Shown: positions 34,560-63,632 of the stretch, one piece after another
Layout of the letters: the number at the start of each line of letters is the position of its first letter
How positions within the stretch are numbered: position 1 is the stretch's first letter
Made by a program: the position numbers and the translations under genes
Assembly (NCBI GenBank): GCA_965655095.1
Contig: OZ296649.1
Location: 97,216,001-97,280,000 of the forward strand
Direction: 5' to 3'
Origin: Haplodiscus bocki
Lineage: Eukaryota
Length of the DNA: 64,000 nt
Notes under the pieces: generated by a model
Databases searched by the model: none
What the model was told of the DNA's origin: nothing
The model's input: the letters and a program-made list of their open reading frames with translations, nothing else

Positions 34560-37439
34560 CTACCAGACAGACTTTCAACAGAAAACAGTTTTCCTTTCAA
34601 CACCAGGACTCACTGGCACTCGCCTCTTTCTGCTCTTCCTGGTACTTGACGCAGATCGCCTGCAACAAAGGAGACCAAGCTTTTCATGCTCCTCAACATA
34701 TTACACATCACCTACCTCAACGACATCAGAGATGCGAACAGTAGTGCCTGGTGCAGTCTCTGCAACAGCTGATGATGCTACAGTTTCTGCACCAAACCAA
34801 AGTTCCCGTGTATCTTTGACCGCCCTCTTTCGTGATACAATTTTCTCTCGGCATGACTTCAGATCTGCAATTACGGGGCCAGCTTCTACACCAATTGCTC
34901 CCCAAGGGTCAAACTTAGCACTGTTCCGAACAGCATCTGCGGCAGTGACAGCAGTGTTCAGCATGCTGATCCCAATCTCGGAAAAGAAAGTTCTCTCCGT
35001 GAACAGAAGATGACACACAAAATCCAGCCCATCCCACTAACACCTTCACTTTCTCATGACTGATTGCAACCCCGCTGAGAGCCACAGTAAGGATGGGATG
35101 CAACTCTGAAGGACTCTTCACCAGTAATGCTGCCTACTGGAAGATCTGAAAGCAGCACCTGTGTTAGGTCATGAGAATGTTGAGATGGATTCAAAGCACT
35201 ATAATACTAAATTTGTGCAAATTCCGCCGAAAACGGAAGCCAGGCTGGTTGCAGAATGCAAAGACGCTATTGATTGGCACAGGAGACATATTTCCACTCG
35301 CTTCCACATGTCGTTTCTCGCGGACGGAAGAATGGAACTCAGCCTTTGCAGGTTCCTTTTCTGACCCCCTAACCCAGCCAAGTTCAAGCAGCCTATCCCG
35401 AAGTTGCCCAAAGAGGTGGAAAAAAGAATAATCGCCGCTTCAAACGACAATCTCAGGACAAAAACAGCTCAGTCCTTGCCCAACTGCAGAACGCGCGGCA
35501 GCTGTAGAGAGGATGGTGCTCACGACATCCTCATGGAAGCGACGACAGTCCCTAAGGAACACTTTTCGGAGGAAGCTGCTGTTTATTTTTTCAAGGGACG
35601 ATAAAAGACGGGTCCCTTCCAAGTAACGCTCCTCTGCGATCGCGCCAAAGCATGAATGATTCGGGAGCATGTACGCCTCCCACTTCTCTATGACGGGTAA
35701 ATCGCTACTCCGCATCACTTTTTGTAGAAAACAATACACAAATTGGGAGAGCTCCCTGAATGCCAGGTAGCCATATTAGGCACGCCCAGAGTCGAATTCG
35801 GTGAAATTGTGTGCAACTAAAACAACACAAACAATGGCCAGAGAAAAACTAGGAAATGTGCCACAAGTTTCGAAAAGTTTCCTACTAATTTTCCGGAATC
35901 CATACGTACCAACGTGAATCAGATGAAGAAAGTGCAAGAAGCCGGACATACAGATCTCGAGAATCAGATGAAAGAGGCGAAGTTTGCTTCTTGCCATCTG
36001 ATGGATATAAAAGTAGCCATCGATTCCCTTCTTCTAAAAGAAAACAGCAAGGGGAAGGCGTGAAAAAAATTGCAAGTGAATTAAAAAAGAGAATGTATTG
36101 TACCACTAAGCTGTTGCCGTCGGTCTTTCTACCAGTCTCCCTGAGGTAGACCACAATGAGATGCCACACTCGCACCTTGTTGCTGACGACCTCAACCAGC
36201 GATGGCATCGACAGCTCTCCTGTGATGATGATATGACGAAGACTGGAGCGTGACATCATCCAGTCGCAATGCTCTGCCCCCTTCAAACGCGTGACAATAA
36301 ACTCCGTCATCGAGATGGGATCCAACGATCCGAAGACGGAAGAGGACACCTTTTGCAGGCATCTTTTCAGTAGACGCAGGTCAAACACTGGGTACTCTAC
36401 AGGCTTGTGACTCTACCCAATTCACAAATATTCACCGTAAGTGTCGGCCAACACATGCGACCCACCAGAAACTGCAACGAGGGACGCCGAACCATCCACA
36501 GCAGCCAGGACCGACCGAGCACTGACAACTCGTATGTGGCATCAATGGAGAAGCGGTCTGTGCGGCGACAGCAACCCGACGGAAAGTGTCCTTCTTTCAC
36601 GTTCGCATGAAGGCCCACAATGCCACACCACGCTCCACGAATTCAAAGCTGTAGAAATGCTGAGCCTTAGCCCAACCAACCACACAAGACGGAATTTGGG
36701 GTGCAATTCCAATTATGATGATTGACTGAAAGCGAAACAACAACGTGAATCAGGAATGAGATGAAGTGGTTCCGGGAATCTATGGAACTTACCAGAACTT
36801 CGTCACGTGTCCAGGCTACCTCAGTATTGACTGGCCCGGCGGTTGGCAAAAACTGCACCCACAGCTTCTCAATGAGTTCATGGCTGCCTCCCATCTTCAG
36901 CGCATCCACCAAGCAATACACTTTTGTCAGAACTGGCAATTGAGGGGCAGTGACACTAGCTTCATCGGTGATCAAGTCCTCTGCAAACAGATGTTCACGG
37001 TTACGTACTACAAGAGTACCCTCTCTGATTTTCTCCCTCTGACGCTCCAGCTCATTCTCACTTATTGGATTTCCTTGGAAATCCAAAACGCGCGACCGTT
37101 GTGTTTCCAGACGCAATCGCTGATGACGGGCAAAGTGACGACTGCCTTCGAAATGACGCAACATTTCATGATGTTCATGTGTGAGCACAGAGACATTCTT
37201 CCGGCACACCCAACAGCAAAAATGGCTTGGCATGTTGGCAGCGTTTGATGGTCCTGTCACAGAGAACATGCCAAGCTCTGTTGCCGCGTACACTTACTTT
37301 ATGCGGAAAGTTCTTTTATACAGATTTTTCCGACGCCCCTTGCTAGCGTCTGTCTCATCTCCGCTGGTGTCTGACGTCTCAACTCTCTATGGACTTTGGG
37401 ATGGCCGTTGCTTTAGCTTGTCCAGCACTTCATTCAGGT
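34560..37439 (-). pseudogene. Antisense multi-exon cargo gene of element B: BED-like zinc finger plus hAT-transposase-like body
   Basis: HFCCWVCRKNVSVLTHEHHEMLRHFEGSRH zinc finger. GT-AG introns at 36726-36792 (67 nt) and 36034-36103 (70 nt), both phase 0. Further acceptors at 37440 and 35146. C-terminal FLRDCRRFHEDVVSTIL...LSCFCPE and RRNLHK/IFQ*AALL. Confidence 0.65.
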
Positions 37440-37709
37440 CTGTCAACAGAAAAACGTATAATGGATACCATGCACGAAACTGTTGAAACCGATTGAGGCG
37501 AAAATACTAACTATTTCCTAAGGGAAACAGCAGTTGCATTTTCTCCTCCTCACAAACGGAGCGAGACAAGGACATTGTCTGATGATCAGTGGCACGAATT
37601 ACAGTAGCGGTAAGGATCGGTGACGAGTTGATATAAAAGGCAAGAAATGTGGTAAAATTTTGGAGTCAACATAGAACAACACTAGTAAATATTTGATTTG
37701 AACACAAAT

Positions 37710-38722
37710 ATTACCATGACCAGACGCCTGCTTCAAGAAGTCTCTGCTTCGACCTCGACTGTGGACAGCCTCAAGGACATCATGCTGGGGCCCCCCAGCC
37801 AACGGTACCAGGCTCGTGGTAACAACACTGTGACGCCCCTCAACTGCCCATTAGTCTCCACGCCGGTAGACGCAACCTCAATTCCGGAAACTCCCGGAAT
37901 CGTTTCGGCATCACATGGAAACAAACAGAAACTGAGCCACTGAGATGACCAAAAACCTGCAATGTTGATTAGGGAGCAAGAAACTCTCAAGAACAGCCGT
38001 GAGAAGACTCTTCGGTGTTCGCTTTGTCCGACTCTTCTTCTACTCAACATCTTCTTCCGAAGTCGGCGAGCCAATCTCAAACTCAGAATCAAACACGTCT
38101 GTCCGGGGCAATCCAGGCTCATTGGAATGAACCACTGGTTCACCGGAGCCTTCATACACTAACACACAACAGCTTCACGAAGTCATCTTCATGTTTCAGC
38201 GCGCGCAGCACAACTAGTTTAGAAAAATTCAGTCACTGGCAACAAAAGGAATTGTAAGAGCAAGGCTAATGGTAAAAGATGAAGATTTGAAAGCTCACAT
38301 TGTGGAAGGTGAGCGGTGTCAACGACACCCTCGGACACAATCTTCTTCGCCAGTCTCTCTCGACGAAAGACTTCTGAGAGCGTGAATCCCCCAGACTCAT
38401 ACCCAAAGACCCCAGACTCGTCAACGCCATCAACAACATCAACGTCCTCATCTTCGTCCTCCATATTTGCCTCAGAGCCAGCTTCGGCCTCGCACACACC
38501 ACTTACTTCGTTTTGTCCCTCTGGACCTCTCACAGGACTCTCCTCCCCTCTTTCTCCAGCAACTTTCTCTACGGGGACATCAAAAGGGGAAGGGGAAACA
38601 GCAGCTTGAACAGCTGACTTATAGTCCGCTTGGGACGAACAAATCTCCTCAAGCAAGAGGACGCTCTCTTCAGACATACTTCGGAATTCAATTCGAAGAA
38701 CGTGGCTAATAAGCCACTGCAT
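37710..38722 (-). pseudogene. Upstream antisense exons / second antisense gene of element B (acidic, low complexity)
   Basis: ORF 38219-38722 with EDEDEDVDVVD; candidate 63-nt intron GTGAGC...CCAG at 38236-38298; ORF 37733-38155. Confidence 0.4.
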
Positions 38723-39089
38723 GGTGGATTTCTAGCTTCATTCATGAAAGTCATTATTATTTTAGTTTTTACCCTGAGCGATTTGTCTGCCAGCAATGAC
38801 GTCATCATAATATTTTCATGGATACATTGAGGGAAGGAACTCACAATTCTTCATTTTTCACTTTTCCACTGTCGTTCCTTGATTTGTTTACAAGTCATCA
38901 ACTTCAGCTATACCACCAACTACTTGCTCTCAGCAATTAGAATGCTACCGCCGGAACTTCAAAGCATCTCCCGCCTGGCCAGGCATGCCGACTAACTTTT
39001 GTTTGTATTATCATTTCTTCAAGTAACTTCATCAAATTCAACAGCTCATATTACCTCCCAAACTTCCTTGTCTCCAATAAATTATCGCG

Positions 39090-39756
39090 ATGAACCCACT
39101 TCTCTCTTTGGATTCATCATCTACAGAATCAGATGTTTTTTATGTGGTGCGCTCATCGGAAGAAGGTAGCCCTATCAGAAATACCTTGGCAGTCCTCAAT
39201 TCTACGGAACTATCAGGAGCTGTGGCAGTGAGACAATCACAATTTCCTCCGTTGCCTCTCCGGAACCACGAATTGTGATGGTAGGTTCAGACTCTAACGA
39301 ACCCACAATTCCATATGGTTTTGGCAGTCAACATCCAATTGTGCCACCCAGCCTCAATGATTTCAACATGCCGCCCAACCCATTCAATGTGTTGACTACT
39401 ATGGCCGTGGTCGATTGCATGAGGAATACAGCCCCCAATCACCGGAGCCATCCATCCCGTCTCCAATTTCGACGCCCCCAATGTATGTGAGTACCATTGA
39501 AGGCTGGGAGACAACGCGCACAACAACGGACATTGCCACATTCTATACTGACGATGAGCCCACACGAATCTTTTGGGATGTTTCTTCAAGCCACACTTTT
39601 AACACCAATGAGCCAAGAAATGTATCTGTCGCTTCGAGCCCTTCCTGCATACCGCCGCGTCCACGACAACAAATAAGGAAGCTGAGGATGGGGATGTCTT
39701 TTCACAGAAAAGAGGAATGTCGCAGCACAGCTGCGAGGCATGCGGCTAACACTTAG
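39090..39756 (+). pseudogene. Ser/Pro-rich sense ORF crossing the PPT into the 3' LTR of element B
   Basis: Three overlapping ORF pieces (39090-39278, 39275-39490, 39415-39756) of similar S/P/T-rich composition, consistent with one frameshifted ORF. Confidence 0.4.
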
Positions 39757-41375
39757 CAGGCAAAAAGACAACACGATGCCCAGGAGAAACGCAGACATTA
39801 TATACATTTAAAAAGAATCTAACTATATATAGACCATGTACTTTTAACTGTTGTGCATATATACGGATACGTATAAAATACGTATCCCTGCCAATGCACA
39901 TATATATGGGTAAGTATTTATACGGAACCAAACTGAGCCGGACTAGGACGGAACCGCTGCGGAACAAACAAGTATTCTTGGAGTATTATTAACCTAAAAG
40001 GTGCTTTTTCTATATTAATATACTTGTTCAATTAATAAACATTAACCCGACCTTTTCAATGGAATCTGACAGTTAGATTGATTGCAAGAAGTGCAGTTTA
40101 AGTAGAAAGTACGGTTAAATCGATGCTATAAGCACAACAACTGGTTTGAATTATTTTGACTATCGGAGTGAAAATTTGATCCGTACGTGTTCCGTCTTTA
40201 CTAGTCTGGTGACGTCACTAAAATTATTTCTATTACGCCGTCCTTTAGTGAATACGGAATCATTCCGGAATCACTCCTCCTTTGAGCACAGACTACTACC
40301 ACTACTAGTGAACACGGAAAAATCCGGAAACCACTAGTTGGTTGCTACTCATACGAATGAGGAGTAAACTAGTAGTGCTACTAGTTTCTCCTCATTTCCA
40401 AAGAGTAAAGATTTATGAATTGTTACTAATACTGATGAGGTGAGTACGAGGGTGATGAGTGTTTATATTTTCTGTATTATCCTTAAATTTAAAGTCACGA
40501 ATTCTGTATGTTTTACTTTTAATTTATTTCACTTTTTTAACTGGGGAAATATTTTGCTTTTTTTCAATTACGGAATGTACTTTTTAGACTGTAAACAGAA
40601 CGTCGGTCGAAAAATGGAAAATGCGCGTCCTATGAAGGAAGAAATGGATGGAAAGGTTGTTTAATTACCCTGCCAGAGTCGGCATTTTTAACTTTGATGC
40701 CACATTTTAGAAAGTACTTTTCCTGTTTGTACCTTGAATTGGAGTTTGAACAATTTTGTTTCTCGCCAGAAAAAGGTATAAAAAGTACAAATGAAAGTAA
40801 AAGTTTAGAGTTTTTTGAGGAACACTTAACTTGAGGAACACTTATCTTTTTTCTGTAGCACTGACGATTTTTAACCAGTATTTACTCATTTGTATTTCCA
40901 CTACTGCAAACTGTAACCACCAATCTGATTTTCCCTCCACGAAAAAACAATCAATTACTTATCACTGAAAACATGTTTCCCGTAGAAATGGCAAATTGAA
41001 ACAAAAAGAAAATAGAAGCCTTAAACAAAAAAAACTGTGAGGAACATCCCAGGAGCAACTTGAGAAAAAACTCGAATGTTTATTGATCACAGGAGTTCTA
41101 CATAACTAAAGTTTCTGAGGAAAATGAGGAAAGAGTCACTAAAAAGTTGTCACACGAATTCAGCAGAACGGAAAACCGCATACTAGATGCATTGGCACGT
41201 CTTGATGACTTCCTCACAAACCAGCAAATTCAGGGCCACTCCGGAACCGCTCCGGAACATTTTTAGTGTAAACGAAGTTGCGAATAAGGATGACTCCCAG
41301 AGTAACCCTCATCCTGGAGCGGGCATCTTTAACAACCAGATGACACAAAATCTGGCCCAGAAGATGACAACGACA
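39718..41375 (+). repeat. 3' LTR of element B
   Basis: TGTCG...CGACA, preceded by the PPT; direct repeat of 26318-28048. Confidence 0.92.
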
Positions 41376-42899
41376 TTTACTTTTTCCTATCTTTTCAGGA
41401 CAAAATTTCTACTTAAGAATATAGTTTTTACTTCAACAGCACCCTGAGAGTAAACGCAAAAAAAAGTCTATTGAATGTAGTTTCGACGAAGTTTTTCCGG
41501 TTAGGTTTTCAAAATTGTTTGAAAAACTTATAGGAAAGTTTGTGAAACTTTGTAAATGGAACAGATAAGGCGAAAAGATGAAACACGAGACTGAGAAGAG
41601 ACGTTATTATGAGATAAAAGAAAGCATATCAGATCATAACTTCAGATTATCATCTGCTTTTAGAAGTCAGACAAAACAAAGTTTCAAAATAAAACAAAGT
41701 CCGAAAAAAGATGAATTTACTCACTTGTTCGCTCAGAAGATTTCCTCAAAAATGATTACATTCACAGAAGATTTGACAGCTGAGAATCAAAGTTCAATTG
41801 GGCACTGTGAACATAATTCTCCATGCTCAATTTTATCTCTTTCCGATGAAAATTAAATGAGAAAATGTTTCAATTGGATTATTTTACGTCCAAGGCTGAT
41901 GAAATATTTTTTTTGAACTGAAACAAAGTAGATCATCAATTATATTTTTTGAGGGAACTAAGGCTCATCAATTTTTCAAACTGAATAAGTAAAAACAAAT
42001 CCTTTAATTTTGTGTTTCATTCAAAATAATCTGAGTTACATTTTAGTCTTCAAAATTGTTATTAATTAGACATTTAGATGTTGTTTTACGTTTCCTCGTA
42101 CACCGTTGGTCAGTAATGTACCAAACATGAACATTGATAGTTGTTATTTCACCTCTGTAAGTGTCAATTTTCGGAGTTAGATTCGAAAACAGATTATCTA
42201 AAGTGTAAAAACAAAGAGAAAAGTGGAAACTTTTGAGTTTTCATTCGAAATTGGTAGTATTTGTACACTAATAAAGGATATTACATCATTTCTGAGTCAA
42301 CGACGGTCGATGTTTTACGATCCCTGCTTATGGATAGTCAGATTTTCAACGTGTTGGGATCAAAATTTGCCTATCAGTATACTCAGATTTAGTGTTGAAC
42401 AACCAAAGCAAAAACATTACAATCTTTACGTTTTTATCTTCCCTCATTTTTCTATGTTCTAACATTTGATTCATTTCTTTTCTATTCAACAAATGACTTT
42501 TAAAAAAGGGAAAGATATCCACAAAGAAATGAAGAAATTTGTGTATTATTTCTGAGAGAAATGAGAAAAAATACAAGGGTATAGGTGGTGTTATACTTAT
42601 AGGAATAGCCTAATTGTTGTGATAAACTTATTAATTAGATCTTTTCAGGGATTTGATGCGGAGGTGGCAGTTGACACTCCAGATCGTTTGATTCCTATAT
42701 TTACTTCTCGGTTTTGCCATAGTACTATCGGTATTGCCGTAGTACTATCGGTATTGGCGTAAAAACATGGAGAAGTTTCCAATACCCTACTATAATATTC
42801 TCAACCCTCAAGACACAAAGTACAACAACAGGCCACCTTGATAGGTTCCAAAAACGTTTTGTATTGATATAAATTGGTTGCAAACATTATTTCTACAAT

Positions 42900-43654
42900 A
42901 TGGTCAAAAAAGGCAAAAAAAGTTCAACAAAAACCTGTCTATGCTCTACATGCTCTGCTGAATTATCAGACAATTCCAATTCCATATGTTGCGATTCGTG
43001 TAATAACTGGCATCATGGGTCTTGTGTGAACTTATCTGCTGAAAATATTTCTTTCCTTGGGAGTAGTAATAACCTTTTTGGAAATGCAACAGTTGTATTT
43101 CCATTAAGGTTACGCCACTTAAAACACTGGAAGCGAAAATTGACTCCGTCCTATTCAAACTAGAAGAACCCAGACCTGAAATACAACCAGCTCAACCCTC
43201 AAAACCTATAGAAGTATTACAAAACAATAAATATGATCATCACTATAGAGTTCGTATTTCCGGAATTAGTGAAAGCAAAGAAAAATCATTTATTGATAGA
43301 CAATTTGCTGATAAAGAAAAAGTGGAAGAAGTCTTCAAAAAACTAAATGTCAATTGTCCAATTATCGAAACAAACAGACGTGGTAAATTCATTGAAGATC
43401 GCCAAAGAAAACTAATAGCTACTTTCTCATCACCATGGGATGGGCGTTTAGTAATATCTAGTGCAATTCAGAAAAAATTATTTGAAACCGATAAAATTCT
43501 TATTACAACGGATTTATCGCCATCAGATCTTGCAATAGAAAGAAAACTATTATCAAAGCGCTATGAACTGATATCCAATGGTGTGCCAAAAGAAACTCTG
43601 AAAATACGTTACTTGAAACTTTATCAAGGCAATAAAGAAGTAAACGTCGACTGA
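42900..43654 (+). pseudogene. LINE ORF1 with N-terminal PHD finger (one frameshift near 43080)
   Basis: CSTCSAELSDNSNSICCDSCNNWHHGSCVNL (PHD) and RISGISE...RRGKF...RKLIATF...ITTDLS (L1/CR1 ORF1-type RRM/CTD). Confidence 0.85.
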
Positions 43655-46430
43655 CTAAATAAAGAAGCAAAATGTCTTTTAATCAATTGTCCGAGCCTTC
43701 CCTCACTTAATCGTCGCTTATCGTTACTATCAAAGGTAAATTTAATATCCGCCGACATTGTTTTGTGCACCGAAACTTGGCTCGATGAAAATTTTACACA
43801 AAATATTTTTCCTGACGACAATTATTCAATTATAAATCGTTCCGACAGATATAGTGGTTCACACGGCGGTGTATTGGTTCTGTCTAGAAAATGTTTAAAA
43901 GTGCGCAAAATATCTCTAAATGGCGATTTTATGTGCTCAGTTATCTATAACAATGTACTTATTATTACCATATACAATCCACCCCTTACCAGTGATTTTC
44001 GCATCAAAGATATTATTCTGACAGAGAATATCGATACAACTATTTCCAAAGCCAAATGTGTCAACTTTATTATTTTTGGTGATTTTAACATGCCAAAAAT
44101 CGATTGGAACAGCATGACTGAAAGCACAACTTCAGAGTAACTCTTATTCCTCGAAATGTTAACTAATAACGGCTATGAACAAATTATTACTTCGCCCACC
44201 CATCAATCTGGAAATATTCTCGACTGTGTGTTTATAAATTATGGGTCAACGCATTTTACAATAGATGAAAATTCATTTTCCGATCACTATTTTGTTGAGT
44301 TCGACATTCCGAGAACACACCCTTCATGTGACTCTACATCTCAGCCTATACTTTCCCTTAAACCAGATTACCCAATAATAAATCAGTGTATCGGATCTAA
44401 TTTACTCTCATCTTTTATACCTGATACGACTGCCTCTTATTCCCACCGGATTGGAGAATTAACCTCCATTATTCAACCCTTCTTCAAACGTAAGCGGCAA
44501 AGAAGAACCCAATTTCCTAGCTTTTACAGTTCGCACACTATTCACATGCTCAACAAGCTCCATACTACACACAGAAGAATCAATCGACAACCAACGTATA
44601 TTACCACACCATCAGTTCAAATATCAACCACCAATGTACTACAATCTATTGCTCTTGATACCCATATATTCATTGAAAAATTTGCAGACGCGAATCTGAA
44701 CTTTAATGATTGCTATAAACTGATCAATTCTTTCCAACGCAGCAATAAATTACCAGCTTGTATGACTCCAAACGATGAAATCCTAATTGATGATCTTAAT
44801 AAAGCGAATGGTTTCAACAAACATTTTTGCAGTGTTTTTAAGAGAGATGGTCTACCATTTTCTGATTTCTCTGAAAATACCCTAAACAATATTGAATTCA
44901 CAATTCAAGACGTCGATAAGGCTCTACGACAAACAAAACGTGGTTCTAGTACAGATGCTTTTAATGGTGATTTCATCTTACAGACTTCTAATGCACTGGG
45001 TATCCATTACCATAATTTATTAAAGAATTTGTTAAAACACTCATATTGGCCAAATGAATGGAAGCAAGCTATAATAACACCCCTTCATAAATCTGGTAAT
45101 ATCGAATGGATATGTAAATATAGACCAATTTCTTGTTCATTAAAATTATCAATAGTATTTGAGCGCTTACTGTTCAACAAGTTATATGATTTCTTCTCCC
45201 CCCAACTATCCGGCTCCCAATTTGGTTTTATGAGACGCAAATCCACGGTGCTACAACTAATAATTTATTTGCAGGCTATCTACAATAACGTTGACACAAA
45301 TACAGATTGTTATGCACTTTATCTCGATTTCTCAAAAGCATTTGATAGCGTATCTCACGCGACGTTGCTCGAAAAATTACGCCTTTTTGGTATTGGAGGA
45401 TCTTTGCTAAGGTTGCTATCGAGCTACCTAACAAATCGCCTTCAATGCGTTAAACTCAACAATATTATATCAGCGTCATTACCAGTCACCAGTGGTGTGC
45501 CTCAGGGATCGGTTTTGGGTCCACTCCTATTTTTGGTTTTTATCAACGACCTGCCAATCCAAGTATCGCACTCAAAAACATTCCTGTATGCCGATGATCT
45601 TAAGCTTAATCATAACAACCTTGTAGAATTGCAAAATGTTATATTAGCACTTTCTCAGTGGTCACAGGTAAACAAATTATCATTCAATGCCAAAAAGACA
45701 CAGCTCATTTCATTCGATTTTCGGTCTCAAGACTGCATCACAGATAATCCAGTTCTTATCCTGGATGACCATGAAATATTTCTTGAAAAAAGCGTGGTTG
45801 ATCTTGGTCTATTTTTTTCAAGCAACTTAGCTTGGTCAAAACACATATCTGATCGTCTAAAGGCATGTTACATTAGAATTATATCCCTAAGAAGATGTCT
45901 ACCGCTGCATTTACATAGCCAAACCAAGACTAAATTGTATAAGACCTATATTTTGCCAGAATTACTTTACGGGTCACAAGTTTGGTCCCCGAATCGGAAA
46001 GACCTATCTAAATTAGAACAGTTCCAGAAAAACGTCTCAAAGTGGATATGCAAGGGTGCTACATACAAGACTAGATTAATCTCGTCCGGTTTACTTCCTA
46101 TAAATCTTCTCCTGAAAATAAACGATCTGCTATTTCTCAACCGAATCCTAAATGGCATGTATGATTTTGATTTTCATAACTTTTTATCGATCATTTACCC
46201 CTGTGACAGTTTTTACTACAACACTAGATCTACCCTGAAGCCCGTTCTCAAGGTTAAATCAACTCGTACAAAACAGGCCGACAATCACTTTCCAGCGAAT
46301 TGTTCCCCTGTCAAACTGGTTGATGAAGGAGCACAATGTCGACTCTTTCGTTGAGCCTAACATCTTCAAACCTCGAGTGAAACAGTTGTTCAAACGCTTA
46401 TTTGCATCAGTTGAATATGTTTTATAATTT
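43655..46430 (+). pseudogene. LINE ORF2: apurinic-like endonuclease plus reverse transcriptase
   Basis: EN motifs TETWL, GDFNMP, ILDCVF, SDH. RT motifs YLDFSKAFDSVSH, SGVPQGSVLGPLLF, YADD. One stop at 44138 and a probable late frameshift near 46290. Confidence 0.92.
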
Positions 46431-50183: not shown

Positions 50184-50828
50184 TGTCATGTGAAATATCT
50201 GTTTTACATTTTTTGCAGATTTTTTGGTCAATGCAAAGTTATCGAAATATCCGGTTGTGACGTACCTGAAAAATATACGTCATACTGTCCCTTGATAAAA
50301 CTACCAAAAAAATATATACATGAGTGAATGAACTTTGATGAAAGGTCAATGTAACTTGAATATTTATGACTCATGATCAGATTGGAGAAATTGGAAAGGA
50401 AGTGGGCCGAGCAGAACAACACAACACGAGTGCTGAGGAAACATCAGAGATTACCAACAAATACAGCACCCCCTCGCCCAGAAGGAACTAACAACAAAAC
50501 AAACAAATTCTCCTGAATATTTGAACTTTGATATTTGTACGTATATATACATTTCTTCTATATTTAACCATAGTGTTGAGAAAAGTGAGAAATTATAAAA
50601 AACAACAAGAAGAACGAACCAGACCCGAGAACAGTTGAAAAATAATCTTACCTTCATCGCTGTTTTAAATCACCGAGCTGTGAGTAGTAATAAATCAGTT
50701 CCAGTCTGTGGCCATCTAATAAAATCGCGTCTTGAGATACTCACTAAATCAGTGTCCTCCGCTCACCCAAAAGGGGACAAAAATTCTAGACATGGAAACA
50801 AAAACAAGGACATGAGAAGTTCTTGACA
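50184..50828 (+). repeat. 5' LTR of element C
   Basis: TGTCATGT start (same as the element A 3' LTR) and TTGACA end directly followed by TGGTGACAG at 50829. The partner LTR is not in the window. Confidence 0.7.
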
Positions 50829-51275
50829 TGGTGACAGTCGATAATTGATCGGACCAATATCCAACACCTACGGGATTCACTCTACACACAGCTCTCACGA
50901 TACATTGTGATTGACATCAATACACTGTGACAAACACTAACCAAATGGGACATCACTGATGACTATACAAATGCGATGCGGTAACAGAGACGCCTTTCAT
51001 CTAGACGAAATTGCAGCCTGATGACAATATACAGCGTATTCTACATGGAAGGATGATGGTAGTGTGAACACAATAAAGTGCAGATAAACTGTTAGATACA
51101 ACCATATGTTCTGTTTTATTAGTCACCTAAAGCTTAAATATGGTGCTAAAGTGCTTAATTCCTAGTGCTAATTACACTTACTAATCTTATCGGGGTACTT
51201 TGCTCAGCTTACCAGAAAGCTCAAGGCGATCTCTCTAAATCGTTAACGTGATTGACAAAGTGAATAGTGTGAAAA

Positions 51276-52510
51276 ATGGCACAAGCTAACGTGACAATTA
51301 CACCTTTTACGGGAGAAACGAAAGAGGATTTTAACCAATTTGAAGAATTATTCAGAGGAATTATTGGTGTAGCAGGAATTGCAGGCGCACAACAAGCAAA
51401 TTTTTTGCACTTACATTTAAAAGATGACGCACTTAGTTTTTTCCAAGAATTGCCAGTGGCAGTTGGAACAGACTTAGATCAGAGTCTTGCTGCATTGCGA
51501 ACACGGTTCGTTAATAATGAATTGCAACAGATCCATGTATTAAAATTAGAAAACCAAAAAATCGACACAAAAACGGACACACCAGAAAATTTTCTTGTAC
51601 AACTACAAGCACTTGCAAAAAAGCATATCCAACGCCCGTAATACCGCCGTTGCTCCAATTGATGCACATGCAGCTGATGCCGCAGCAGAAGCCGCTCGAT
51701 TTGCAACAGAAACAGCCATAAATGTAACAACATTAGCAGAGGCTGAAACCTTTAAAGATAATCAAATCCGTCGAGTTTTCATAAAAGTAATGCCGGGATG
51801 GCTACGGTCAAAATTGATGGAGCGACCGGCAACAGACACAATTCAGGATTTGTGCACTTTTGCGAGTAGACAAATCACTATTCGTGATATGTGTCGAAAA
51901 GACGATTATCCGGAAGATGGATTTAATCAAATTGAAAATCACTTGTCGGACACTCTAATTAATGTACTTTCTAAAATTAGCCAAACTCAGGATAATCTTC
52001 AACAAAAAATAACCGACATGAGCAACAATGCTAACAAACAACCAGAAAACTTTCAAGCAAAACAAAATACAGCGCAAATTTTAGTTCCTTATGACCAACA
52101 GACTCCATTGGGACAATTTAACCGTAATCCAAATCCATTTCGACAACGACCTCCACGTTTTCAATCTATAAGTTTTCAACATCGACAACAACGACCGTGG
52201 AGTAGTAACAACCAAAATAATCAGAATCCACGACTTAACTTTGGTGGTAACCAAATGCTTCGAGTTCCTCCTAATGCAAATGGTTGATATAATCCAGTAC
52301 ATAGCCAACAACCAGTAATGAACCGCCAACAAAAACCAATAATATCAGCCACAACAACAATCATACCAGCATATGTTTTTTACAACGTCTTCACAGATTG
52401 TTTGTCATAATTGTGGTTACTCAAACCATAAAGCTAGCCAATGTGCCGCTTATAAACGTCATACACAGTCAGGCGTGCGGTTTCCTTTTAATCGTATTCC
52501 AAAAAACTAA
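51276..52510 (+). pseudogene. gag: gag of element C
   Basis: MAQANVTITPFTGE...; Q/N/P-rich linker; zinc knuckle CHNCGYSNHKASQC (~52403-52444); ends IPKN*. A few frameshifts and stops. Confidence 0.88.
52501..52507 (+). promoter_or_regulatory. -1 ribosomal frameshift slippery site A AAA AAC at gag-pol junction
   Basis: CCA AAA AAC TAA in the gag frame, an X XXY YYZ heptamer immediately before the gag stop. Confidence 0.75.
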
Positions 52511-55500
52511 TGGAGCCACCCGTTACTTCTTTACATATACCAGAATCTTATAGTAACCTTTCCAATTTACATGTACGTAATCATACTATCTATAGTATCT
52601 TACTCTCTACCTCCTAAAGCTTTATATTTATATAATATTAACGGCACACGTGCTCCAGTTTTATCTTATATTAAAAAGTCTTCAAAAGCGGCATTAAAGT
52701 CTTTGGTAAAATTTTTCTGACATTTCAATTAGCGCAGCGTGTATTTTGCGAACCTTTTCTTATTTGAGACACTACTACTCCTATTAATCTGGGTCAACCT
52801 TTTTTTCTTAAACATGATGTCACTATTCGAGCGGCACGAAATCTTCGTTTTCCGGACTTAGCAGTGCATATTAACGAAATCAAACCAATTGATGGTCTGC
52901 GACGGACGATTAAACCAACAAAAGTTTCAGTTCGGAACGCGAAGAAAATAGTCATACCATCATATGAACAGAGAACAATCCCATTTGCTTTACGTACAGA
53001 GGATGCATTAACCGATTTGAGTGGACTGATTATTCCCAATGATAATCTTGAGCGCGAATTTGATATTTCCATTATGTCTTCAATGAGTACAGTGGAAAAA
53101 GACAATCTCGTATACATAATTGTGCTTAATATCACTGACACCCAGTAACGATTACTCGTGATAACGAATCAGCGAAATTTGCGATTTTAACAGCGAATCA
53201 AACTGATAAATTGACACCAATCGATCCAAATTTGTTAAACGTTTCTTATAGCATGGGCCCTGAACAGTTTGAGTCGACCATCAACCAATTAATTCGTGAC
53301 GAAAATTTCGTTGTTCCTTTACAACCGCCAAAACCGGAGCCTGAGTTTAAAACCTTTTGGTTTCCTACCCCAGAAACATGTGAGGACCCGAATCAGTTAG
53401 CGCCGATTCAATGTGAGATTTATAACCAGATTTTACGAATCAAACAATTAGAGCCACGGGATCCACAGAACAATGAAATGGATTGACGGGAATTTTTGGA
53501 TCTATTTCCATGGGACAAGTCAGTCCTAACGTCAGAACAGCGTGCGGAAGTTCATCAGCTTTTAACTAAATATCACGATGTTTTCGCAAAACATCGTTTT
53601 GATATTGGACACAACACAGAATTCAAAGTAAAGTTGACTCCGGAACATGACCAACCGGTCTACACACAAGGTCCGCCGAGTCCAATTCATTTACGAGACG
53701 AATTACATGTACAATTGGCTCTGTTTCATTATTTTGGTCTTATAACGACGCTACCGTACTCCAAGTATAGTAGCCCTGTTTGCACAACGCAAGAGTAATG
53801 GAAAACTTCGTTTGTTGAGGGATTTGCGACGCATCAATCATCTTTTACGTAATGATTATCATAACACCATTTTTCCTATTTCAAATTTGCATGACGCAAT
53901 TAACCATTTTGCGGGCAAACGACTTTTTACGAAGTTGGATTGCTCCCAGGCTTACCATTGTGTCCAGATGGCAGACGGAACGTCAGTGCAATTCTTTGCA
54001 TTCAATTATTCATCACGCACATATGCCTATCAACGATTGGCGATGGGCCTGAGCAAATCCGTAACCGGGTTTAGTTCGTTAATCCGCCATTATCTTGATG
54101 GATGTTTAGCTGCAGGCCTCTGTACGCAATTCATGGATGTTATCGGCAGTGCCGTATCCTCTTTTGAAGAGCTTATACCTGCCCTTGATGCTATTTTCGC
54201 CGCGATTCGTCGCTCAGGACTTAAACTAGTCCCCGAAAAGTGCAAAATTGCCACAGCATCCATGCAGTTTTTGGGAAATGTGATCTGTGAAAATGGAATT
54301 ACCCCGGAGAGTGAGAAAATTACGAAATTTTTAAATAGAATACGTTTGCCGCGTACTGTGAAACAAGTGAAAAACGTCTTATTGGGTTTGTCCAGTTTTC
54401 CAGTAATTTTTTCTCTAATCTTGGAACTAAATTAATACCATTTTGTAAATTGTTGGAAAAGGAGGCGAAGCTTAAAGTTGATGAAACTCATGTTGAGGCA
54501 TTGGGAGTTCTTAAACGAGACTTGCTGGACGAAACAAACACCACTCTCAGGTTAGCCAAACCTGGTTTGCAATACGTCCTACTTTGCGACGCAAGTTATC
54601 ATGGCGCCGGATTTGTCCTAATGGTTGAGGATGACACAAAAGTCCTCCCTTCCGGAACAGCTATGCCCCTGTTTCGTTTGGTTCTCATTTAATACCGCTC
54701 AGCTGAAATTTTCTATTTATTATAAGGAGTTTCTTGCTGTTTATTTTGCCTTTGATACGTTTGCACACTATCTTTGGGAATCAAGTAAACCAGTCATTAT
54801 TCTTACCGACAACAAAAGTCTTACGAGTTTTTTTCAATCAAAAACAGTACCACCTTCGTTATGGAATCGTTTAGACAGGGTTCTGTCGTTCAATTTAACA
54901 ATTGCGCATATTCCAGGTCGAGCCAATTATGCCGCTGATTTCCTATCACGTATAGAAACAGATAAATCGTCGCACTTAGAACTAAAATTAACTGATAAAA
55001 TTCCAGTGAGAGAAATCGAAAATGAGACAGAAGCGAAACAACCTGATGCTTCGTCGGCACATAATGAGTCCTTCGATGAACTTTTCTCGGAAGAGCCTTT
55101 GGACCCGAAGTTGGAAGTCCAGTTGAGAAATTTGGGCGTCTATGATGCATATGTTGAACAACGCCCGCAGCGGGCTAGAGTCGATGGATCGTCAGTGGTT
55201 GGTTTCATCCACCTCGTTCAAAAGCGCCCTAGCTTAATGTTGTTCAGGAACCAGATTCTATGGATTCTTTTTTGACGACCGAGCATTTTGGCGAACTGAA
55301 TTTGGCTCAGGAACAAGCGAAAGACCCTGACATTCAAGAAGTCTTACGTTAGAAAGAAGCCAACACTGTTCCTTCTTTACGATATGCTAATAATACACTG
55401 CGAAAATACGCAAAGCATTTTGCAAGCTTGGTTGTGACAGACGGTGTTCTTTACCGCCAGTTTTTCGACGCAGTGGGTGCGGTCCAAGCTGATCAATTTT

Positions 55501-57765
55501 GCGTTCCAAGACATTTGTGGAAGGAAATTATTTATCGACTTCATAATTCCGCCACCGCGGGTCACCTAGGAATAGTTAAAACCATTCATGAATTTCGTAA
55601 AAGATTTTACTATCCTAGTTTTACTGAACATTATGCTGACTTTATCAAAAATTGTTTCACATGTCTTCAGCTAGAGCGAGTACTGCAAAAACAAATCCGC
55701 CCCTCGTTAGGGTCGTTGACGACTCAACAATCTTTTCCGGGCGACATGTTCCAAGCAGATTTGGTAGGACCCTTACCGAGTGATGTGTAGAAGTTTGTTC
55801 TGACCGGTGTTGATGTTTTTACCAAATATTTGTTTGCGCCTCCACTTACTAACGCTAGTGCTGACACTGTTCCTCGAGAACTTGTTCGATTCTTTTTTCA
55901 ACACAGTTATTTTCCGCGTACCATTGTAACCGAATCAGGTACCAATTTCACTTCTGAGCTTATGAAGGAATTGGCTACCTTGCTTGAAATTAATTTAAAA
56001 CATGCTTCTCTTAAGCATCCACAAACCATTGGAGTAGTGGAACGATCACATGCCATGCTTAATCTTATTTTGAAATGTAATACTGATGAACATTGGACTG
56101 ATTGGCTCAAGTATGTCCCATTAGCTACGTTTCTTCATGATACCAGCTATCACTCTGCTATAGAATAAAGTCCATCTACACTTTTCGTTGGACGTGAGCC
56201 GATTGAACCCCTTGTTTTGCGTTTTTCTCGAAAAGCTTTAGAAGCAGTGGAAGCTGGTCCTGATTTTGTACAAGAACTTCAGGTTGCGATGTTACGAAAG
56301 TTTGAACTGACTCAACGGAAACTTGTTGAGTCCTATCATCGGTATCGTTCTTATTACGATCACAAAGCCACTGCATAACCGCTTGTGTTGCATCATTTTT
56401 GTCTGCTTTTGAATCCTAAAATACTTACTCAAAAAGCAGGTACTCCGAAATCCTGGCCAACTTGGATTCCGCTGTACCGCGTGGAAAAGGTTTTAACGCA
56501 TTCTAACTATATTGTTAGAAAATTCGGCACGTTTTTTACGCAGTGTGTACATCGTATACGCCTGCGACCAGTTTCTCGTCATACTCCTCCTGCGGACCTT
56601 ACAGTTGTCGATCCGTCGAATTTTACTCCGGATCCGTCCCGACGTACTACCGGTATGGAACCTGAAGTGTTTGATGAACATTTCCCTGCGTTGTTTATTG
56701 AGGATCCTGTTTCTTCACCGCCGCGTCTTGCGCCTCCGCCGCCGGCGACAGTGTCACTTCCATTTTGAGCACCGCCAGCGGGCGCTCCCGTAACATTACC
56801 TCCGAATCCAGTTGACGCTCCATTTGAAGCGCAAGGGTCTAGTACCTCTTCTTCGCAATCATCGTCTCCACAGCTGTCGAGCGATGAAAATACTTCGAGC
56901 TCATCTGGTGAGGCTCCTCCTCCCTCTCCTATTATGTTGCGCCCGCGACCTACAACTCGTAGTGTCCCAGTGTCGTCGTCACAATCTAGCGACACAACAC
57001 GCCCCAAAGTTACTTTTAACCCATTCAAGAAAGTCCGTACGTTCTCTACCGTACCCTATTCGGAACTTGAAGCTTCCTTAGCTGCAGGTGCAAAGCTTCC
57101 CTCTGCATCGTCGCCACATATACCGAATTCGCCACTGACGGCGAGTGCAAAACGGCACTGCGATGAAGCAGTCTATTTTACGTAATCGTACTTCATTTAC
57201 TCCTTCGCGAGCGACTAAACTTGATCTGGTACGTGCTAGTATTCAGAAATATGCTACAGGAAAGTCCTCAACCGCCTCGTCCACGTCCACAATGGATCCA
57301 GATTCTAGTCTTAATTCTTTAGTGACCCCTGAGACCGACCACTTTACATTGGTCGAAGCATTTATTTCTAGATCTCCTTCACCTATCATTCATTGTATTG
57401 GTGGAGATCACTTCCTACATTATTCGCATAAGGACTCGTTTTCCTGGCTTAATAAACCGTGGGATACGTCCTTGCAACACTGTCAATCTTTTCCGATCGG
57501 TACAGTAATTCCGATTTTTGATCGTTATGGTTATCCAGTTCTTTTTTACTTAGTCACTTGTGACTTGAGTTTTCAACCGGATGACCCGCCCACGCGTATG
57601 AGTGCCTTCTCCGCATTTTTTTACACTACCTATCATTTTGACTTTCCTACATTGGCTTTAGAACGTAATAATTTTTCTTATGATGACAATCTTTTACAAA
57701 GTGCGTATAACATTCTTGATCACCATGCATCTCTAAATGGTGTTCATTTTTACCTCTATAAATAG
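52508..57765 (+). pseudogene. pol: pol of element C (PR partly deleted, RT, RH, IN, Pro/Ser linker, macro-like tail)
   Basis: LGQPFFLKH (PR C-terminus). KLDCSQAYH and QFMDVIG (RT). LCDASY and AHIPGRANYAADFLSR (RH). HNSATAGHLG...CFTC (IN zinc motif). QADLVGP, TIVTESGTNF and GVVERSH (IN core). Confidence 0.92.
57330..57765 (+). CDS. Divergent macrodomain-like module at the end of element C pol
   Basis: SPSPIIHCIGGD...GTVIPIFDRYGYPVLFYLVTCDLSFQPDDPPT...PTLAL...VHFYLYK; same position and motif order as the element A remnant. Confidence 0.55.
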
Positions 57766-58649: not shown

Positions 58650-59587
58650 CAGTACCGATCTTCTCCCCTCATTTCGGCGACGTCCTCTGTGCCCTGCGCC
58701 GCCAGTTTCGATAGTCAGGCAGTAGACGGCCCGGCTTCGTCCTCTCTCCTGACTCCCCTTGTCGCTCCTTCCGCGGGTTGCTGCTCCTCATCCTCTTCTT
58801 CACGTTCATCGTCATCACTAAAATATCAACTGACTTTGTCCTTTACTGCGTCCGTGTTTTTGCCCCGTTAACCTCGTTTTTTTTGTAATTCCTAACCTAT
58901 CGTCAAAGGCGAGTGGTTGCGTATGGTACTGGGCCACTAACTGGTTGCGAGGTCCAACGCAACAACAAACTGCATGAAAGAAGACGGCTCACTCCTTCTT
59001 TGACCTAATCGTGTGGGGATAAAACGCACATCTTTTTCCATTTGGGTATTGCCAGTACACTATGCATTTGACTCCTAGTGTATAGGCCATGCCTAGGAAC
59101 TGAAACAATCAACGCTTAGTGTTGTATTTTGAACTTGTTTCTTCATTTTTCATATGACTTTCACTTACCCAGAATTCTTGCACACTGCCACCTGTCCGGC
59201 TTTCGTGCACATCGAAGACTGAGAGGTGGTAGCCGAGGTGCGCCTTTGCCAACTCGAAGAACTCTGGGGATCGCATTGATGTGAACAGGCCTTGACAAAG
59301 CTTGGTGCACGACTCGGTGCCTTCCTTATATTTCGGATCTACAATGCACGTTCTTTCAATTGTCCCTGTTTTTGGGCAAATAGATTATACTGAATGTACC
59401 TTTACTCACTTGAACGTCTACCTGTCAACACATATTGCAGTGCACTGATGGCACAGTCCCCTCCTCCTTCAGCATGATTGGAACGATGGGAGATGGATTT
59501 TGGCTCCTCCAACTTAAAACTAGGACCCCGCAAAGCGTTCATAGTGTCCTTGTGGAACGTATACCCAAACTTCTTGCACCATTTTTA
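58650..59587 (-). pseudogene. Antisense spliced OTU-like cysteine protease (putative deubiquitinase) in element C
   Basis: AEGGGDCAISALQYVLTG, then intron 59366-59409, an open 197-nt exon ending GGSVQEFW, intron 59100-59168, then FLGMAYTLGVKCIVYW...QYHTQPL. One TGA in the third exon. Acidic tail; upstream exons probably extend to ~60230. Confidence 0.6.
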
Positions 59588-61290
59588 AGCTGAAAAGTCT
59601 CAGGAGGCTTGGCACAGATGGTTTGGCCTTGAGTGATTGTGAGGAAACAATCAGACACTCTCGCAGTACTTTGACACACCATAGGACTGGATGTGACAAG
59701 CGACCCAAACCACTGTTACACATTCAATCGTTTATAACCATGAGTGACCAATAAATTTTATACTATATGAACAGTGACTAACCGAGCATTAGCAGCTTGG
59801 TTGCCTCCAAGGAAGTCAGGAAGCTCAAACCCCTTCTCATTTAGAAGTGCAGCGTGGGCCCGCACGTTTCGTGAATGTCCTGTCGTCGTCTCCGGCGGAT
59901 GTAAATCTTCAAGAGCATCCAGACATTCTGAAACAGTTGGTACCAACTTGCCTTGGTATAAAAACTTCCCAGCGACAGACTCCGCGAACGATCCCACATC
60001 AGCTGCCGATCTTCCTGACTTAGAAGATAGGGCCATTTGAAGTCCTCCTCCGAGTCTTTTGAACGTAGCGGGGCAATGTAACACGCACGTTCAGCAGAAT
60101 GCATTGCTTCTCTGAAAACCAGCACAACATGTAACCCTGATAGAACCGTCCAAATAACACCATTTTACAAAAGAATAGATCAGACCCAAGCGATTGATAA
60201 GTAGTTGAGGCCTTAGTTAGAACGGTTAGCAACGAAAACTATAGAACTTAGTCCTTTAGACAATAGTTGAAAAAGGTAACTCAAATAAATAAAAACGAAA
60301 AGGTGTAAATGAAAAATTCCCTAAATTAAAATATAAACAAAACCGAAATTAATTAATATAAATCTGTATCTACAAAGATATTATAACGGGTGCTATCTAC
60401 AATACATACTGTCTAACTACATAATACAACTTATGACTAATAATAATTGTTTATATAACGACTTTAGCATCTACAATTAATAATATTCACTAGACTAAAT
60501 TGACAGTAATAATGATAGAAACTACGGACTGTCTACATATGTATGAAGCTACGGTATGTACAATTTACACTATTCTTTCGAGCTACGGTTTCGTCTACAG
60601 TATCTACGTATCTACAAGCTAAGTATATACAAATAAATAGAATTAGAATTACTATGACTAAAATTGTAAAACTTGCTCGAGTATCGGATTGTCCATTGTC
60701 TATCTGTGGACTACTACTGATGATTAAACTTCTACAGAGAGGATATAATCTTCTACTAAAAGCTCTACCACTATGACTACTGACTATGGTGCCGTTGCTA
60801 CAACAGTAAATACTAAAGCTACCAGAAGGGAGAAACGGGCACGACGACATTTTCAAGCGTTTCTGAAAGTTTCGCAAAACCTCATTTGTTTATGTTAATA
60901 TCATTAAACTTGCAAGTAAATAAATATGAATTACAAACTTGTTCAATTTTGTGAATTTTCGAAGATCAAGGAAACTATGACTTCAAATGGAAGAGTACAT
61001 AACAAGTCAAAATAGTTAGTATTTACGACGTAGACTATAAAAGGAATGAATTCAAACATTAACAACGCCCACGGTTCGGTAAAAGTTGATAGTTGAAGTA
61101 TGCCTTACTTATTTTGGTGTGTGGTTGACTATTTGATTACATACATGACCTTTGGTTAGTCAACAGGAAGAACGAGTCACCAACCCAAAAAGAATTCCGA
61201 CGCAGGAACATAATTGCGATAGATTCTTGCCTTCAAATCAGCTCACACATTCCTAGTTTTGTAATTTTGCCACCGACATTCTTGCATTCG

Positions 61291-63632
61291 ATGAAAATGA
61301 GTAAAATCTTTTTCCTCATTATAACATCTAACCTCATATACTTAACTCTACATCTGACTGCTTCGGATCAGTACGCAGAAGTTTTGGCAAGTGGAATCAT
61401 GTTTCACGAGGTGTCAAAAATACTTCGCGTTAAAAAATGTGTAAATATCGAATTTTTAGTCCCGTTTCCAAAGTACACGTTTGAAGTCAAATCGCAGATT
61501 GAAAAACGATTACAAACATTTGCTGAGATGTGGGCGACGCCTACAATCTTTTGCCCAATGGACGAATCGCGCCCATTTAATGCATCTAGCAAACCCTTCA
61601 ATGTAAATTGGTTGTATACAAAACTCTTGGCGGAGCTGCAAGCCGCGAAGAATGATGTATTTGAGATGGGTAACGAAACTGCAATCCTTCTGACAATGGA
61701 AGAACAACGTCAAAGACGTCAGAAGCGAGGTCTACCACCAGCCGCGGTAGCATTAGCTGGCATAAGTGTCTTCGGATCTGGAATCCTGATGGGAATCAGT
61801 GCATTGGTATCACTGAAATCTTTGGATCTTGCCAAGACACAGGCCGCCAGAATGGTGAGAACATCGACCGATTGCAGCAACACGCCTCAGCGCTTACGAA
61901 TTTTGTTATGGAAGTTGCTCAAGAACACGACGAGAAGTTTTTCCTGATCTACAATGAATTAAAAAGGATTCACCAGATACAGCAGGAAATGGAAACAAAT
62001 CAGAATCGCAATTGGGATATAGTCGATTAGCAATTCGAGGTCTTCAATAATAATTTCCATAGTTAGAGGGATTGTACACAATTACTGTACACACAACAGC
62101 AACTTAATTTCAATTACGATACTGTAACTGCCTTATTGTTGACACTTTATGCAGATATCAAGAGCTACAGAGCAGCACTGTATGGCTACAGACTCAACTT
62201 GATAAATGCAGTTCCCAGCTTGTTTGATAAACGCCTTCCCGTATCGCTAGTGCCACGTGCTTCCTTAAGTGTCATTCTTGAATCTGTTCACGAAGCACAA
62301 ATGAAAAATCTGGATCGTCTCACGCTAGCAATCCCTTTGCAAGACATTACGTCTTACTATGACGCCAAGCTAGTACGAGAGATCTCTACAGTACCACAGG
62401 GTCTCCTGCTCACATTAGCGATTCCATTGGCATCTAGTGAGACAATTTCGATGTGTTTCGAGCACATTTAATACCGATGCCCAAAAAGGATCCTGATGTG
62501 GCCTTGCAATGGAAAATTGAAGGACCTTATTTGGCTGTGAGCGAAAATACGATGGAAACAACTGTATTGTCATTCGAACAGATTGAGGATTGTCTCGGCT
62601 CCGCAAGATACAAAATCTGCCATAAGACTATGGAAACGCATTTGTGGCAGAGTTCTTGTCTGGCGACTCTCTATTTCGACAATGCGATCGCTGCATTGCA
62701 AGTGTGTGAGCCAGAGCAAGTTTCTCTCCCGACACCTGAGAAAACAACTAATCTTGGATATGGAATCTGGCTGATAACCTCAGCATCTGATGCCTTCACC
62801 TTGCGAGAATTCACGCGGGGAACAACCAATTCGGTCCAACGAACCGCTATCCCTGGGTGTACCATTTGTATTATCACGCTGGAGTGTGGAATTCAGATGG
62901 CCAGTAAGCATATCAAGGTTCGGCCGGACTTGGAAAGTTGTGATAAAATCCCAGCAAAACGGCTAACAATTCAATTACCGGATCTATTGGCAGGAATACT
63001 CAGCAAAATTCCGCTGATTGAAGAACTTCCGTATTATTGGACACGCGCGGAAGCAACATCAGCACTTCTCACTGAAGTCCGAGCGGAGCTAGTTAAGTCT
63101 CAACATGTAGTGGATGTCACTCATCTCGACAAATTGGCTACTCCGATCGCTGCCCGCATGACAAAATTGAAACCAACGCTAGTTAATAAATTCAAAACTT
63201 ATGTTCCCATACTTACCTCTTTAACTTTGACAGCAGTTGTATTTGTTGCAAATCTCCTTCTTCATCTCCTGGTTATATATCTATATTATAGATTTCTTCA
63301 TCGATTTCTCTGCATTCGAGATTTGGTTCCACATTTCATAGGCACCCCAACTGGAAATGTCCCGCTCAAGCCGCTGGTTACGGTGGACAGTTCCCATAGT
63401 AAGGCAGCTGCCACCTACCTGGCCAGGAAAGAAAAGAAAGTTCGCATTAGTACAGGCAACTGCACTTGCCAATTTACAGACAGAAAAACTCATCAATTTG
63501 CGGAAGTCACTTTCTGACCCTCGAAAGTCGGCTCCTAACTTACATGAAAGTGGATCGTCTCAGACCACAACTGCCCTTCCTCTCACGCTCTCGCGAGTCG
63601 AAATCGTAAACGACGCGGAGAGCAGCATGTGA
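61291..63632 (+). pseudogene. env: env-like class I fusion glycoprotein (baculovirus F / paramyxovirus F / errantivirus Env type)
   Basis: Signal peptide KIFFLIITSNLIYLTLHL. Furin site RRQKR (61714-61728) followed by fusion peptide GLPPAAVALAGISVFGSGILMG. Heptad-like helix, Cys-rich ectodomain, TM LTSLTLTAVVFVANLLLHLLVIYLYY. A few frameshifts and one stop. Confidence 0.88.

Follow-up and report, generated by a model that had tools for sequence, protein, structure and literature searches.

An env-bearing Ty3/Gypsy (Metaviridae) element of Haplodiscus bocki carries, antisense between its integrase and env, a gene whose product is a divergent, non-canonical member of the OTU superfamily. This cassette is an accessory gene of the env-bearing Gypsy clade to which the element belongs, and it is almost certainly a real spliced gene. 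It occupies 60104-58715 on the minus strand of the window (the whole 64,000-nucleotide stretch of DNA analysed) and comprises five coding exons and four GT-AG introns. The original prediction of an antisense, intron-containing gene inside an env-bearing Gypsy element identified a real gene, but a larger one than the three exons it proposed. Element features are listed by window position, those of the cassette in order of its reading direction.

50256..50828, plus strand: 5' LTR (TG...CA), 98.8% identical over 573 nt to the second copy at L014:1114-1685
50829, plus strand: primer-binding-site-like TGGTGACAG, directly after the 5' LTR
51273..52287, plus strand: gag, broken; open reading frames with a weak DUF1759 match and a counterpart in sister elements
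52768..56768, plus strand: pol, broken; domains in the Gypsy order RT, RNase H, integrase zinc finger, integrase core (RVT_1, RT_RNaseH, Integrase_H2C2, rve)
57250..57765, plus strand: pol tail, degenerate, macrodomain-like (weak colinear alignment to the macrodomain of distant relatives)
59783..60104, minus strand: exon 1, ATG at 60104, integrase-N-terminal-like with two His; frameshift near 59972
59713..59782, minus strand: intron A, 70 nt, phase 2, GTTAGT...CAG; alternative in-frame acceptor at 59671
59410..59712, minus strand: exon 2, with CxxC, pre-OTU helix and the loop of the catalytic Cys (codon 59455-59453); frameshifted twice
59339..59409, minus strand: intron B, 71 nt, phase 1, GTGAGT...TAG; acceptor placed by copy alignment
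59169..59338, minus strand: exon 3, encoding the helical arm of the OTU part; from copy alignment
59100..59168, minus strand: intron C, 69 nt, phase 0, GTAAGT...TTTCAG; from sequence and copy alignment
58897..59099, minus strand: exon 4, encoding beta strands and the loop with the His (codon 58925-58923); TGA in frame at 58991-58989
58818..58896, minus strand: intron D, 79 nt, phase 2, GTTAGG...TTTTAG; from copy alignment
58715..58817, minus strand: exon 5, short acidic tail up to the stop; AATAAA downstream at 58631
61129..63517, plus strand: env-like gene, broken; about 1.0-1.2 kb from the cassette, to which it lies head-to-head

The LTRs, primer site, gag, RT-RNase H-integrase order and target duplication identify the carrier as a Ty3/Gypsy element, 5-bp duplications flanking both of the two sister copies inspected. 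Its second LTR copy is located immediately past the window end, and behind this 3' LTR the primer site and the beginning of gag recur at 98.9% identity (L014:1114-2449). The repeat is a recent tandem partial duplication, which makes LTR identity unusable for dating the insertion. Further tandem partial copies were seen at G000:C1:33.38-33.40 Mb and C3:3.855-3.864 Mb. As judged from its sequence, env is a third sense frame related to F-type fusion proteins, with predicted fusion-peptide-like and membrane stretches: an R-x-K/R-R site precedes one hydrophobic stretch and a second is C-terminal. One of 16 database homologues of env gave a Baculo_F match (E 3.6e-7), and a PDB profile search with env returned weak rows only. 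An OARD1/TARG1-type macrodomain is found at the same pol-end position in a distant clade of elements (PDB E 1e-23; Pfam Macro E 0.017), to which the window tail shows a weak colinear alignment (hhalign E 0.007, probability 5.6%).

Splicing, genomic copies and selection

Alignment of nine copies resolved the cassette into five conserved blocks and, between them, four diverged blocks with GT/AG at the borders. Across 37 loci, counting placeable sites only, GT or AG stood at the predicted place for the seven internal splice sites in 29/35, 30/36, 22/34, 25/34, 32/36, 33/36 and 31/37 cases, against a background of 7%; several misses were one base off, next to a frameshift. Conservation this far above background led us to reject chance splice sites. 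Exon identity between the window's group and diverged full-match copies was 60-74%, versus 39-59% for introns. One copy, L013, is without a homologous exon 1. Ahead of exon 1, a conserved acceptor-like TTTCAG ending at 60112 suggests an upstream non-coding exon. None of the 9 joints listed in four contig sets (all 30 bins) was a cassette intron, a result without bearing on expression.

The minus-strand peptides NHAEGGGDCAISALQYVLTGRRS, ...SVQEFW and FLGMAYTLGVKCIVY...YHTQPL that drew attention to the gene are present in the sequence, as are the donors GTGAGT (59409) and GTAAGT (59168) and the acceptor TTTCAG (59100). Other details of the three-exon model were revised. Its acceptor at 59366, implying a 44-nt intron and a 197-nt exon, is less well placed than one at 59339: AG occurs at 59340-59339 in 8/8 aligned copies and at 59367-59366 in 5/8, and the 27 nt between the rival acceptors are 40% conserved, compared with 46% for the intron and 67% for the exon. 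Intron B is therefore 71 nt long and exon 3 170 nt. Two more introns (59782-59713 and 58896-58818) and two more exons had been overlooked, and the proposed branch-like CTAAG is found at that place solely in the window copy among the nine aligned. The single internal TGA reported for this copy lies in frame in exon 4, but three frameshifts accompany it, near 59972 in exon 1 and near 59650 and 59585 in exon 2. Thus, the window copy is a pseudogene.

Searched at the DNA level, the 1.5-Gb genome yielded 13 matches, with three near-full copies at 87-89%; a protein search revealed a second, distant cassette clade. One member of that clade used as query gave at least 168 genome matches, a figure in which exon pieces are counted separately and 150 of 596 candidates were scored. 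Flanks were read at 23 other places (8 + 5 + 10). An opposite-strand env was found upstream at 22 of them and pol downstream at 21, every place having at least one of the two. All 23 are Gypsy-linked and antisense; the segment is common to sister elements, and a one-off insertion, one of the outcomes that would have refuted the original prediction, is rejected. No related loci were found in JGI metagenome contigs or IMG/VR.

Comparison of substitution rates, suggested along with the prediction, revealed purifying selection on the cassette inside elements, maintained long enough for synonymous sites to saturate. Between subfamilies pS was 0.72-0.97 versus dN of 0.16-0.55 for nearly all comparisons, with a single pair across the two clades at dN 0.81. 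Third codon positions were 37% identical, versus 56% and 66% for the other two. Three close pairs had dS/dN of 0.16/0.02, 0.16/0.03 and 0.20/0.07, while in others dN was about equal to dS (0.06/0.06, 0.07/0.07) and in one, over a single exon, dN exceeded dS (0.16/0.09). Close pairs with dN near or above dS reflect decay after insertion.

OTU fold, N-terminal region and origin

We are confident that the cassette protein has an OTU fold, which profile and structure searches support and a low-confidence model accompanies. Alignment by hhalign with Helitron OTUs of the same genome gave a probability of 91.8 and E 7e-7. A profile search of 1.84 billion proteins returned 107 matches, mostly exon-sized pieces starting or stopping at exon borders, with a tail of canonical OTU proteins (E 2.6e-4 to 8.8e-4). 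Four longer tail proteins were scanned and all four had Pfam OTU above cut-off, one of them behind a DDE_1 fragment. An exon-only profile scored 24-36 bits on these four versus a best of 7.5 in 700 shuffles, in a partly circular test, and 9.8, -0.5 and -0.5 on three Helitron frames. The OTU-part model, built on a read-through still containing two introns, had a mean pLDDT of 41.5. When 48,161 chains were searched by structure, the best 28 of 45 rows were all OTU-family proteases; the top row had Z 5.3, a value around 5 being within the range that the search tool calls common, with rmsd 4.5 and 94 residues aligned, and the first unrelated row had Z 2.4. Nairovirus OTUs were among the structural neighbours.

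Other searches were less productive. Foldseek with the OTU-part model, a check proposed at the outset, listed mostly OTUs, but none reached E 0.001, and against viral models it returned nothing at E<=0.001. The proposed match to PF02338 did not materialize: cassette pieces, both intron-split and read-through, gave no Pfam OTU or integrase match at E<=10. A below-cut-off HIPIP match on one read-through was taken as chance. Nothing was found in a PDB sequence-profile search with the OTU part, and nothing informative in an ESM Atlas search.

The expected conservation of catalytic residues was borne out. Among frame-intact exons of the 37 loci, the Cys is present without exception (27/27), as is the His (30/30), and the residue two after His is Glu in 28/30 and Gln in 2/30, including the window copy. 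In the predicted model a helix (72-82) begins with the catalytic Cys, and the His follows on a C-terminal strand (238-246). The order C...H-x-E of the triad agrees with the one usual in OTUs, in which an acidic residue stands two after His (PMC7396840, available portion). Other hallmarks have diverged. The loop Asp of GDGNC is replaced by Gly in 24/27, the residue after His is Cys or Thr, and the W-G-x-x-x-E and H-aromatic motifs are altered; the anticipated WGG..E motif is unconserved, the junction reading EPW/MLGTA or EFW/YLGMA. Because the loop Asp and these two motifs are altered, ubiquitin recognition may be lost or changed. In OTUs the backbone amide of the loop Asp is credited with the oxyanion hole (PMC3968130, available portion). 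The kept triad argues that intact elements probably encode an active protease, and a ubiquitin or ubiquitin-like substrate is somewhat favoured.

In its predicted model the N-terminus weakly resembles an integrase N-terminal domain. Its H, H, C and C are kept in 26/35, 29/35, 24/27 and 24/27 copies, respectively. The model had a pLDDT of 59.9, and its first three structure rows were the integrase N-termini of foamy virus, MLV and Ty3 (Z 3.7, 3.5 and 3.4; next 2.6). Foldseek placed Ty3 integrase first at E 0.8. Against local Gypsy zinc fingers, hhalign gave the N-terminus a score of 13.7, less than the 18.9 of the best shuffled control, and nothing useful came from searching PDB sequence profiles with exon 1. 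Among 7,999 scored, no longer database protein contained exon 1 at E<=1, which is weak evidence.

The gene is about 370-380 codons long, and its OTU Cys falls within about 65 residues of the CxxC, with no DDE core or GPY/F motif between. Ginger1 transposases have an N-terminal Gypsy-integrase-like H2C2 zinc finger, a C-terminal OTU and 1-4 GT-AG introns (PMC2836005, available portion). The cassette, with its putative zinc finger, OTU and introns, recalls this layout, but is without DDE core or GPY/F and travels within an LTR element. Descent from a Ginger1-like transposase through loss of the DDE core is a serious candidate, to which we assign slightly under even odds. Capture of a plain host OTU gene does not account for the integrase-like N-terminal part, and the nearest canonical relatives are transposon-type OTUs. 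Genome searches with PF02338 and P0111 gave 21 and 36 matches; three long frames scanned were Helitrons, and no Ginger1 was identified among the matches examined (these three scanned, some others by eye). Like the cassette, Helitron and Helentron OTUs are transposon-borne and have a similar pre-domain helix (PMC6431247, available portion), in line with the profile match above; unlike it, they are intronless, sit in Rep-helicase frames of 2000+ residues and have GDGNC intact.

Two further OTU-bearing arrangements were seen in the genome. At L087:1422-6424, env is followed on the same strand by an OTU that was considered as a cassette relative and set aside, being part of a Helitron-like insertion 68-70% like L085; nesting of this kind could have seeded the cassette. 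A multi-copy family (L150 and L146, e.g. G000:C1:134996492) has frames of 2,600-2,780 codons with a canonical OTU preceded by a LLLRSGIETNPGP stretch, which we take to resemble a 2A ribosome-skipping peptide. The family, probably Helitron-like, forms tandem arrays of about 15 kb.

Cassette exchange and candidate roles

Eight elements of the distant clade share 92-95% identity in integrase and 92-98% in env, but only 50-66% in their cassette exons in 27/28 pairs, a count that shows seven types on one backbone and gives no frequency of swaps, loci having been picked one per cassette subfamily. The remaining pair shares its cassette at 94-95%, and in another pair the cassettes are 90-91% identical despite 78% identity in integrase. 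The seven cassette versions on one backbone have 41-67% amino-acid identity. Pairwise BLAST revealed long blocks of 87-94% ending either side of the roughly 3-kb cassette region. These patterns are most simply read as recombination on either side of the cassette, because faster protein evolution cannot explain saturated synonymous sites on a backbone about 7% diverged; from these comparisons, exchange by recombination between near-identical elements appears very likely. Integrase and cassette trees have the same two clades, with a Mantel r of 0.77 (136 pairs) versus 0.94 for integrase and env. In the window's own family (four copies) no swap was seen, the three closest copies being 85-90% alike over the whole element. 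At least seven versions on one backbone suggest balancing selection on a transposon gene, and such versions form a natural series for finding the host target.

We propose that an antisense promoter inside the element, near the start of env, would drive transcription of the cassette, and that the transcript would be spliced like an ordinary mRNA. Packaged genomic RNA would bear its reverse complement, from which the introns are never spliced, and they would pass through reverse transcription intact. Protection of introns by antisense orientation, part of the original prediction, would follow from what is established about retroelements, and the retention of splice sites agrees with it. Cassettes would be swapped through template switching between genomes packaged together. 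The intact protein would act as a cysteine isopeptidase that strips a ubiquitin or ubiquitin-like tag from host or element proteins, probably at chromatin or the integration complex via its N-terminal domain; tag removal would counter host restriction, and host pressure would keep many old cassette versions circulating. For the explanation as a whole (an accessory gene of the element, spliced antisense, swapped by template switching and encoding a ubiquitin-type isopeptidase that counters host restriction) we see about an even chance; counter-defence as the selected role falls a little below that. A broader and more tentative version would make the site a phage-like hypervariable accessory slot, in which an integrase finger and OTU of DNA-transposon descent, swapped in ancient versions and joined by the pol-fused macrodomain, are engaged in an arms race with ubiquitin-based restriction. 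OTU and macrodomain form an eraser pair used by RNA viruses.

Among other explanations, the cassette could help integration, docking by its integrase-like N-terminus on the element's integration complex or target chromatin, trimming ubiquitin and steering post-insertion DNA repair, with no part in counter-defence. Ginger1 transposases and Helitron proteins carry fused OTU and Ulp1 domains, for which a repair role in transposition has been proposed (PMC2836005, available portion), and the closest canonical relatives of the cassette are transposon OTUs joined here to an integrase-like N-terminus. We nonetheless consider such a helper unlikely: seven versions at 41-67% identity on one backbone are unexpected for the housekeeping partner of a conserved integrase, and a related env-bearing Gypsy in the window (3475-18007) has no OTU cassette match. 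Less likely again is an OTU-fold protease directed at a non-ubiquitin substrate, for example an element protein or one specific host protein. Retention of Cys, His and Glu while the Cys-loop Asp and Trp motif changed would fit such a protease, as would the broad specificity, extending to polyprotein, of arterivirus and tymovirus OTUs (PMC3968130, available portion); its structural neighbours, however, are deubiquitinases, and Gly need not abolish activity, because the loop Asp acts through its backbone amide (same source).

Many old cassette types on a single young backbone could also be explained by a self/non-self or copy-control module, in which cassette types restrain or exclude elements of their own or another type, rare types are favoured and antisense RNA may contribute. 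A coreless integrase N-terminus could by inference be a dominant inhibitor, and a regulatory role has been proposed for antisense ORFs and RNAs (PMC7264820, available portion), but strictly kept catalytic residues need an enzymatic role, and we regard this module as improbable, slightly more so than the non-ubiquitin protease. Least credible is a functionless passenger, the old remnant of a nested DNA transposon. Although the domain order recalls intron-bearing Ginger1 transposases and many copies are broken, purifying selection to synonymous saturation, the keeping of splice sites and phases, a single fixed position and orientation in two element clades and the lack of a DDE core between CxxC and OTU leave a passenger very little probability. 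Functions of LTR retrotransposon accessory genes are mostly unknown; a recognizable enzyme fold with kept catalytic residues makes a retrotransposon fight against ubiquitin-based host control, like that of viruses, testable.

Related systems and neighbouring elements

Parts of this arrangement are separately known, namely DNA-transposon OTUs, plant Gypsy antisense ORFs (PMC7264820) and the spliced antisense genes of deltaretroviruses (PMC10186651), as described in the available portions of these papers. Plant Gypsy elements with Grande gene23, RIRE2 and Retand likewise have, downstream of pol, an antisense gene that is conserved and has an internal promoter (PMC7264820, PMC11963269). As far as the available text goes, these ORFs have no clear homology to known proteins, whereas the cassette has four introns, an enzyme fold and env downstream; the terms intron and protease are absent from the accessible parts of both papers. 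HTLV-1 hbz and its deltaretrovirus relatives are also spliced antisense protein genes of an env-bearing retroelement, but according to the available portion of PMC10186651 they are driven by the 3' LTR and encode bZIP-type regulators, in contrast to the internal, multi-intron, variable cassette with its transposon-derived predicted enzyme. Nairovirus, arterivirus and tymovirus OTUs share with it an OTU fold in a mobile genome; in the accessible part of PMC3968130 they are domains of RNA-virus polyproteins with demonstrated activity, whereas the cassette OTU is predicted from sequence and model. Bdelloid rotifer LTR elements have likewise captured genes that lie downstream of pol, some of them between pol and env (available portions of PMC5408684 and PMC6431247), and the terms intron, OTU and opposite are absent from what is accessible of PMC5408684. 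Our search of the full-text literature, outside which lie Repbase Reports, supplements and most subscription journals, found no antisense multi-intron OTU gene in an LTR element and no such cassette polymorphism; earlier annotation is possible. The arrangement offers a route by which an RNA-copied element retains a normal multi-intron gene, hidden from ORF-based annotation.

A second Gypsy element in the window (LTR pair 26319-28049 and 39719-41376), without an env match, has a different conserved antisense region after pol (34700-39300, minus strand), and the antisense slot may therefore be general in this genome. That region is common to 32 further long matches at 79-85%. Its minus-strand frames contain a CxxC...H...H zinc-finger-like stretch and gave no Pfam match; the region looks like another antisense cargo, possibly of hAT/BED-like origin. 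The env-bearing Gypsy at 3475-18007, the third in the window, is decayed and has a macrodomain remnant near 11135-11389, about 3.6 kb from env. Parts of this gap have 20 other matches at 66-74%, and a minus-strand frame is present at 13500-13847. A LINE-like element at 43073-46354 has endonuclease-like and RT frames (RVT_1).
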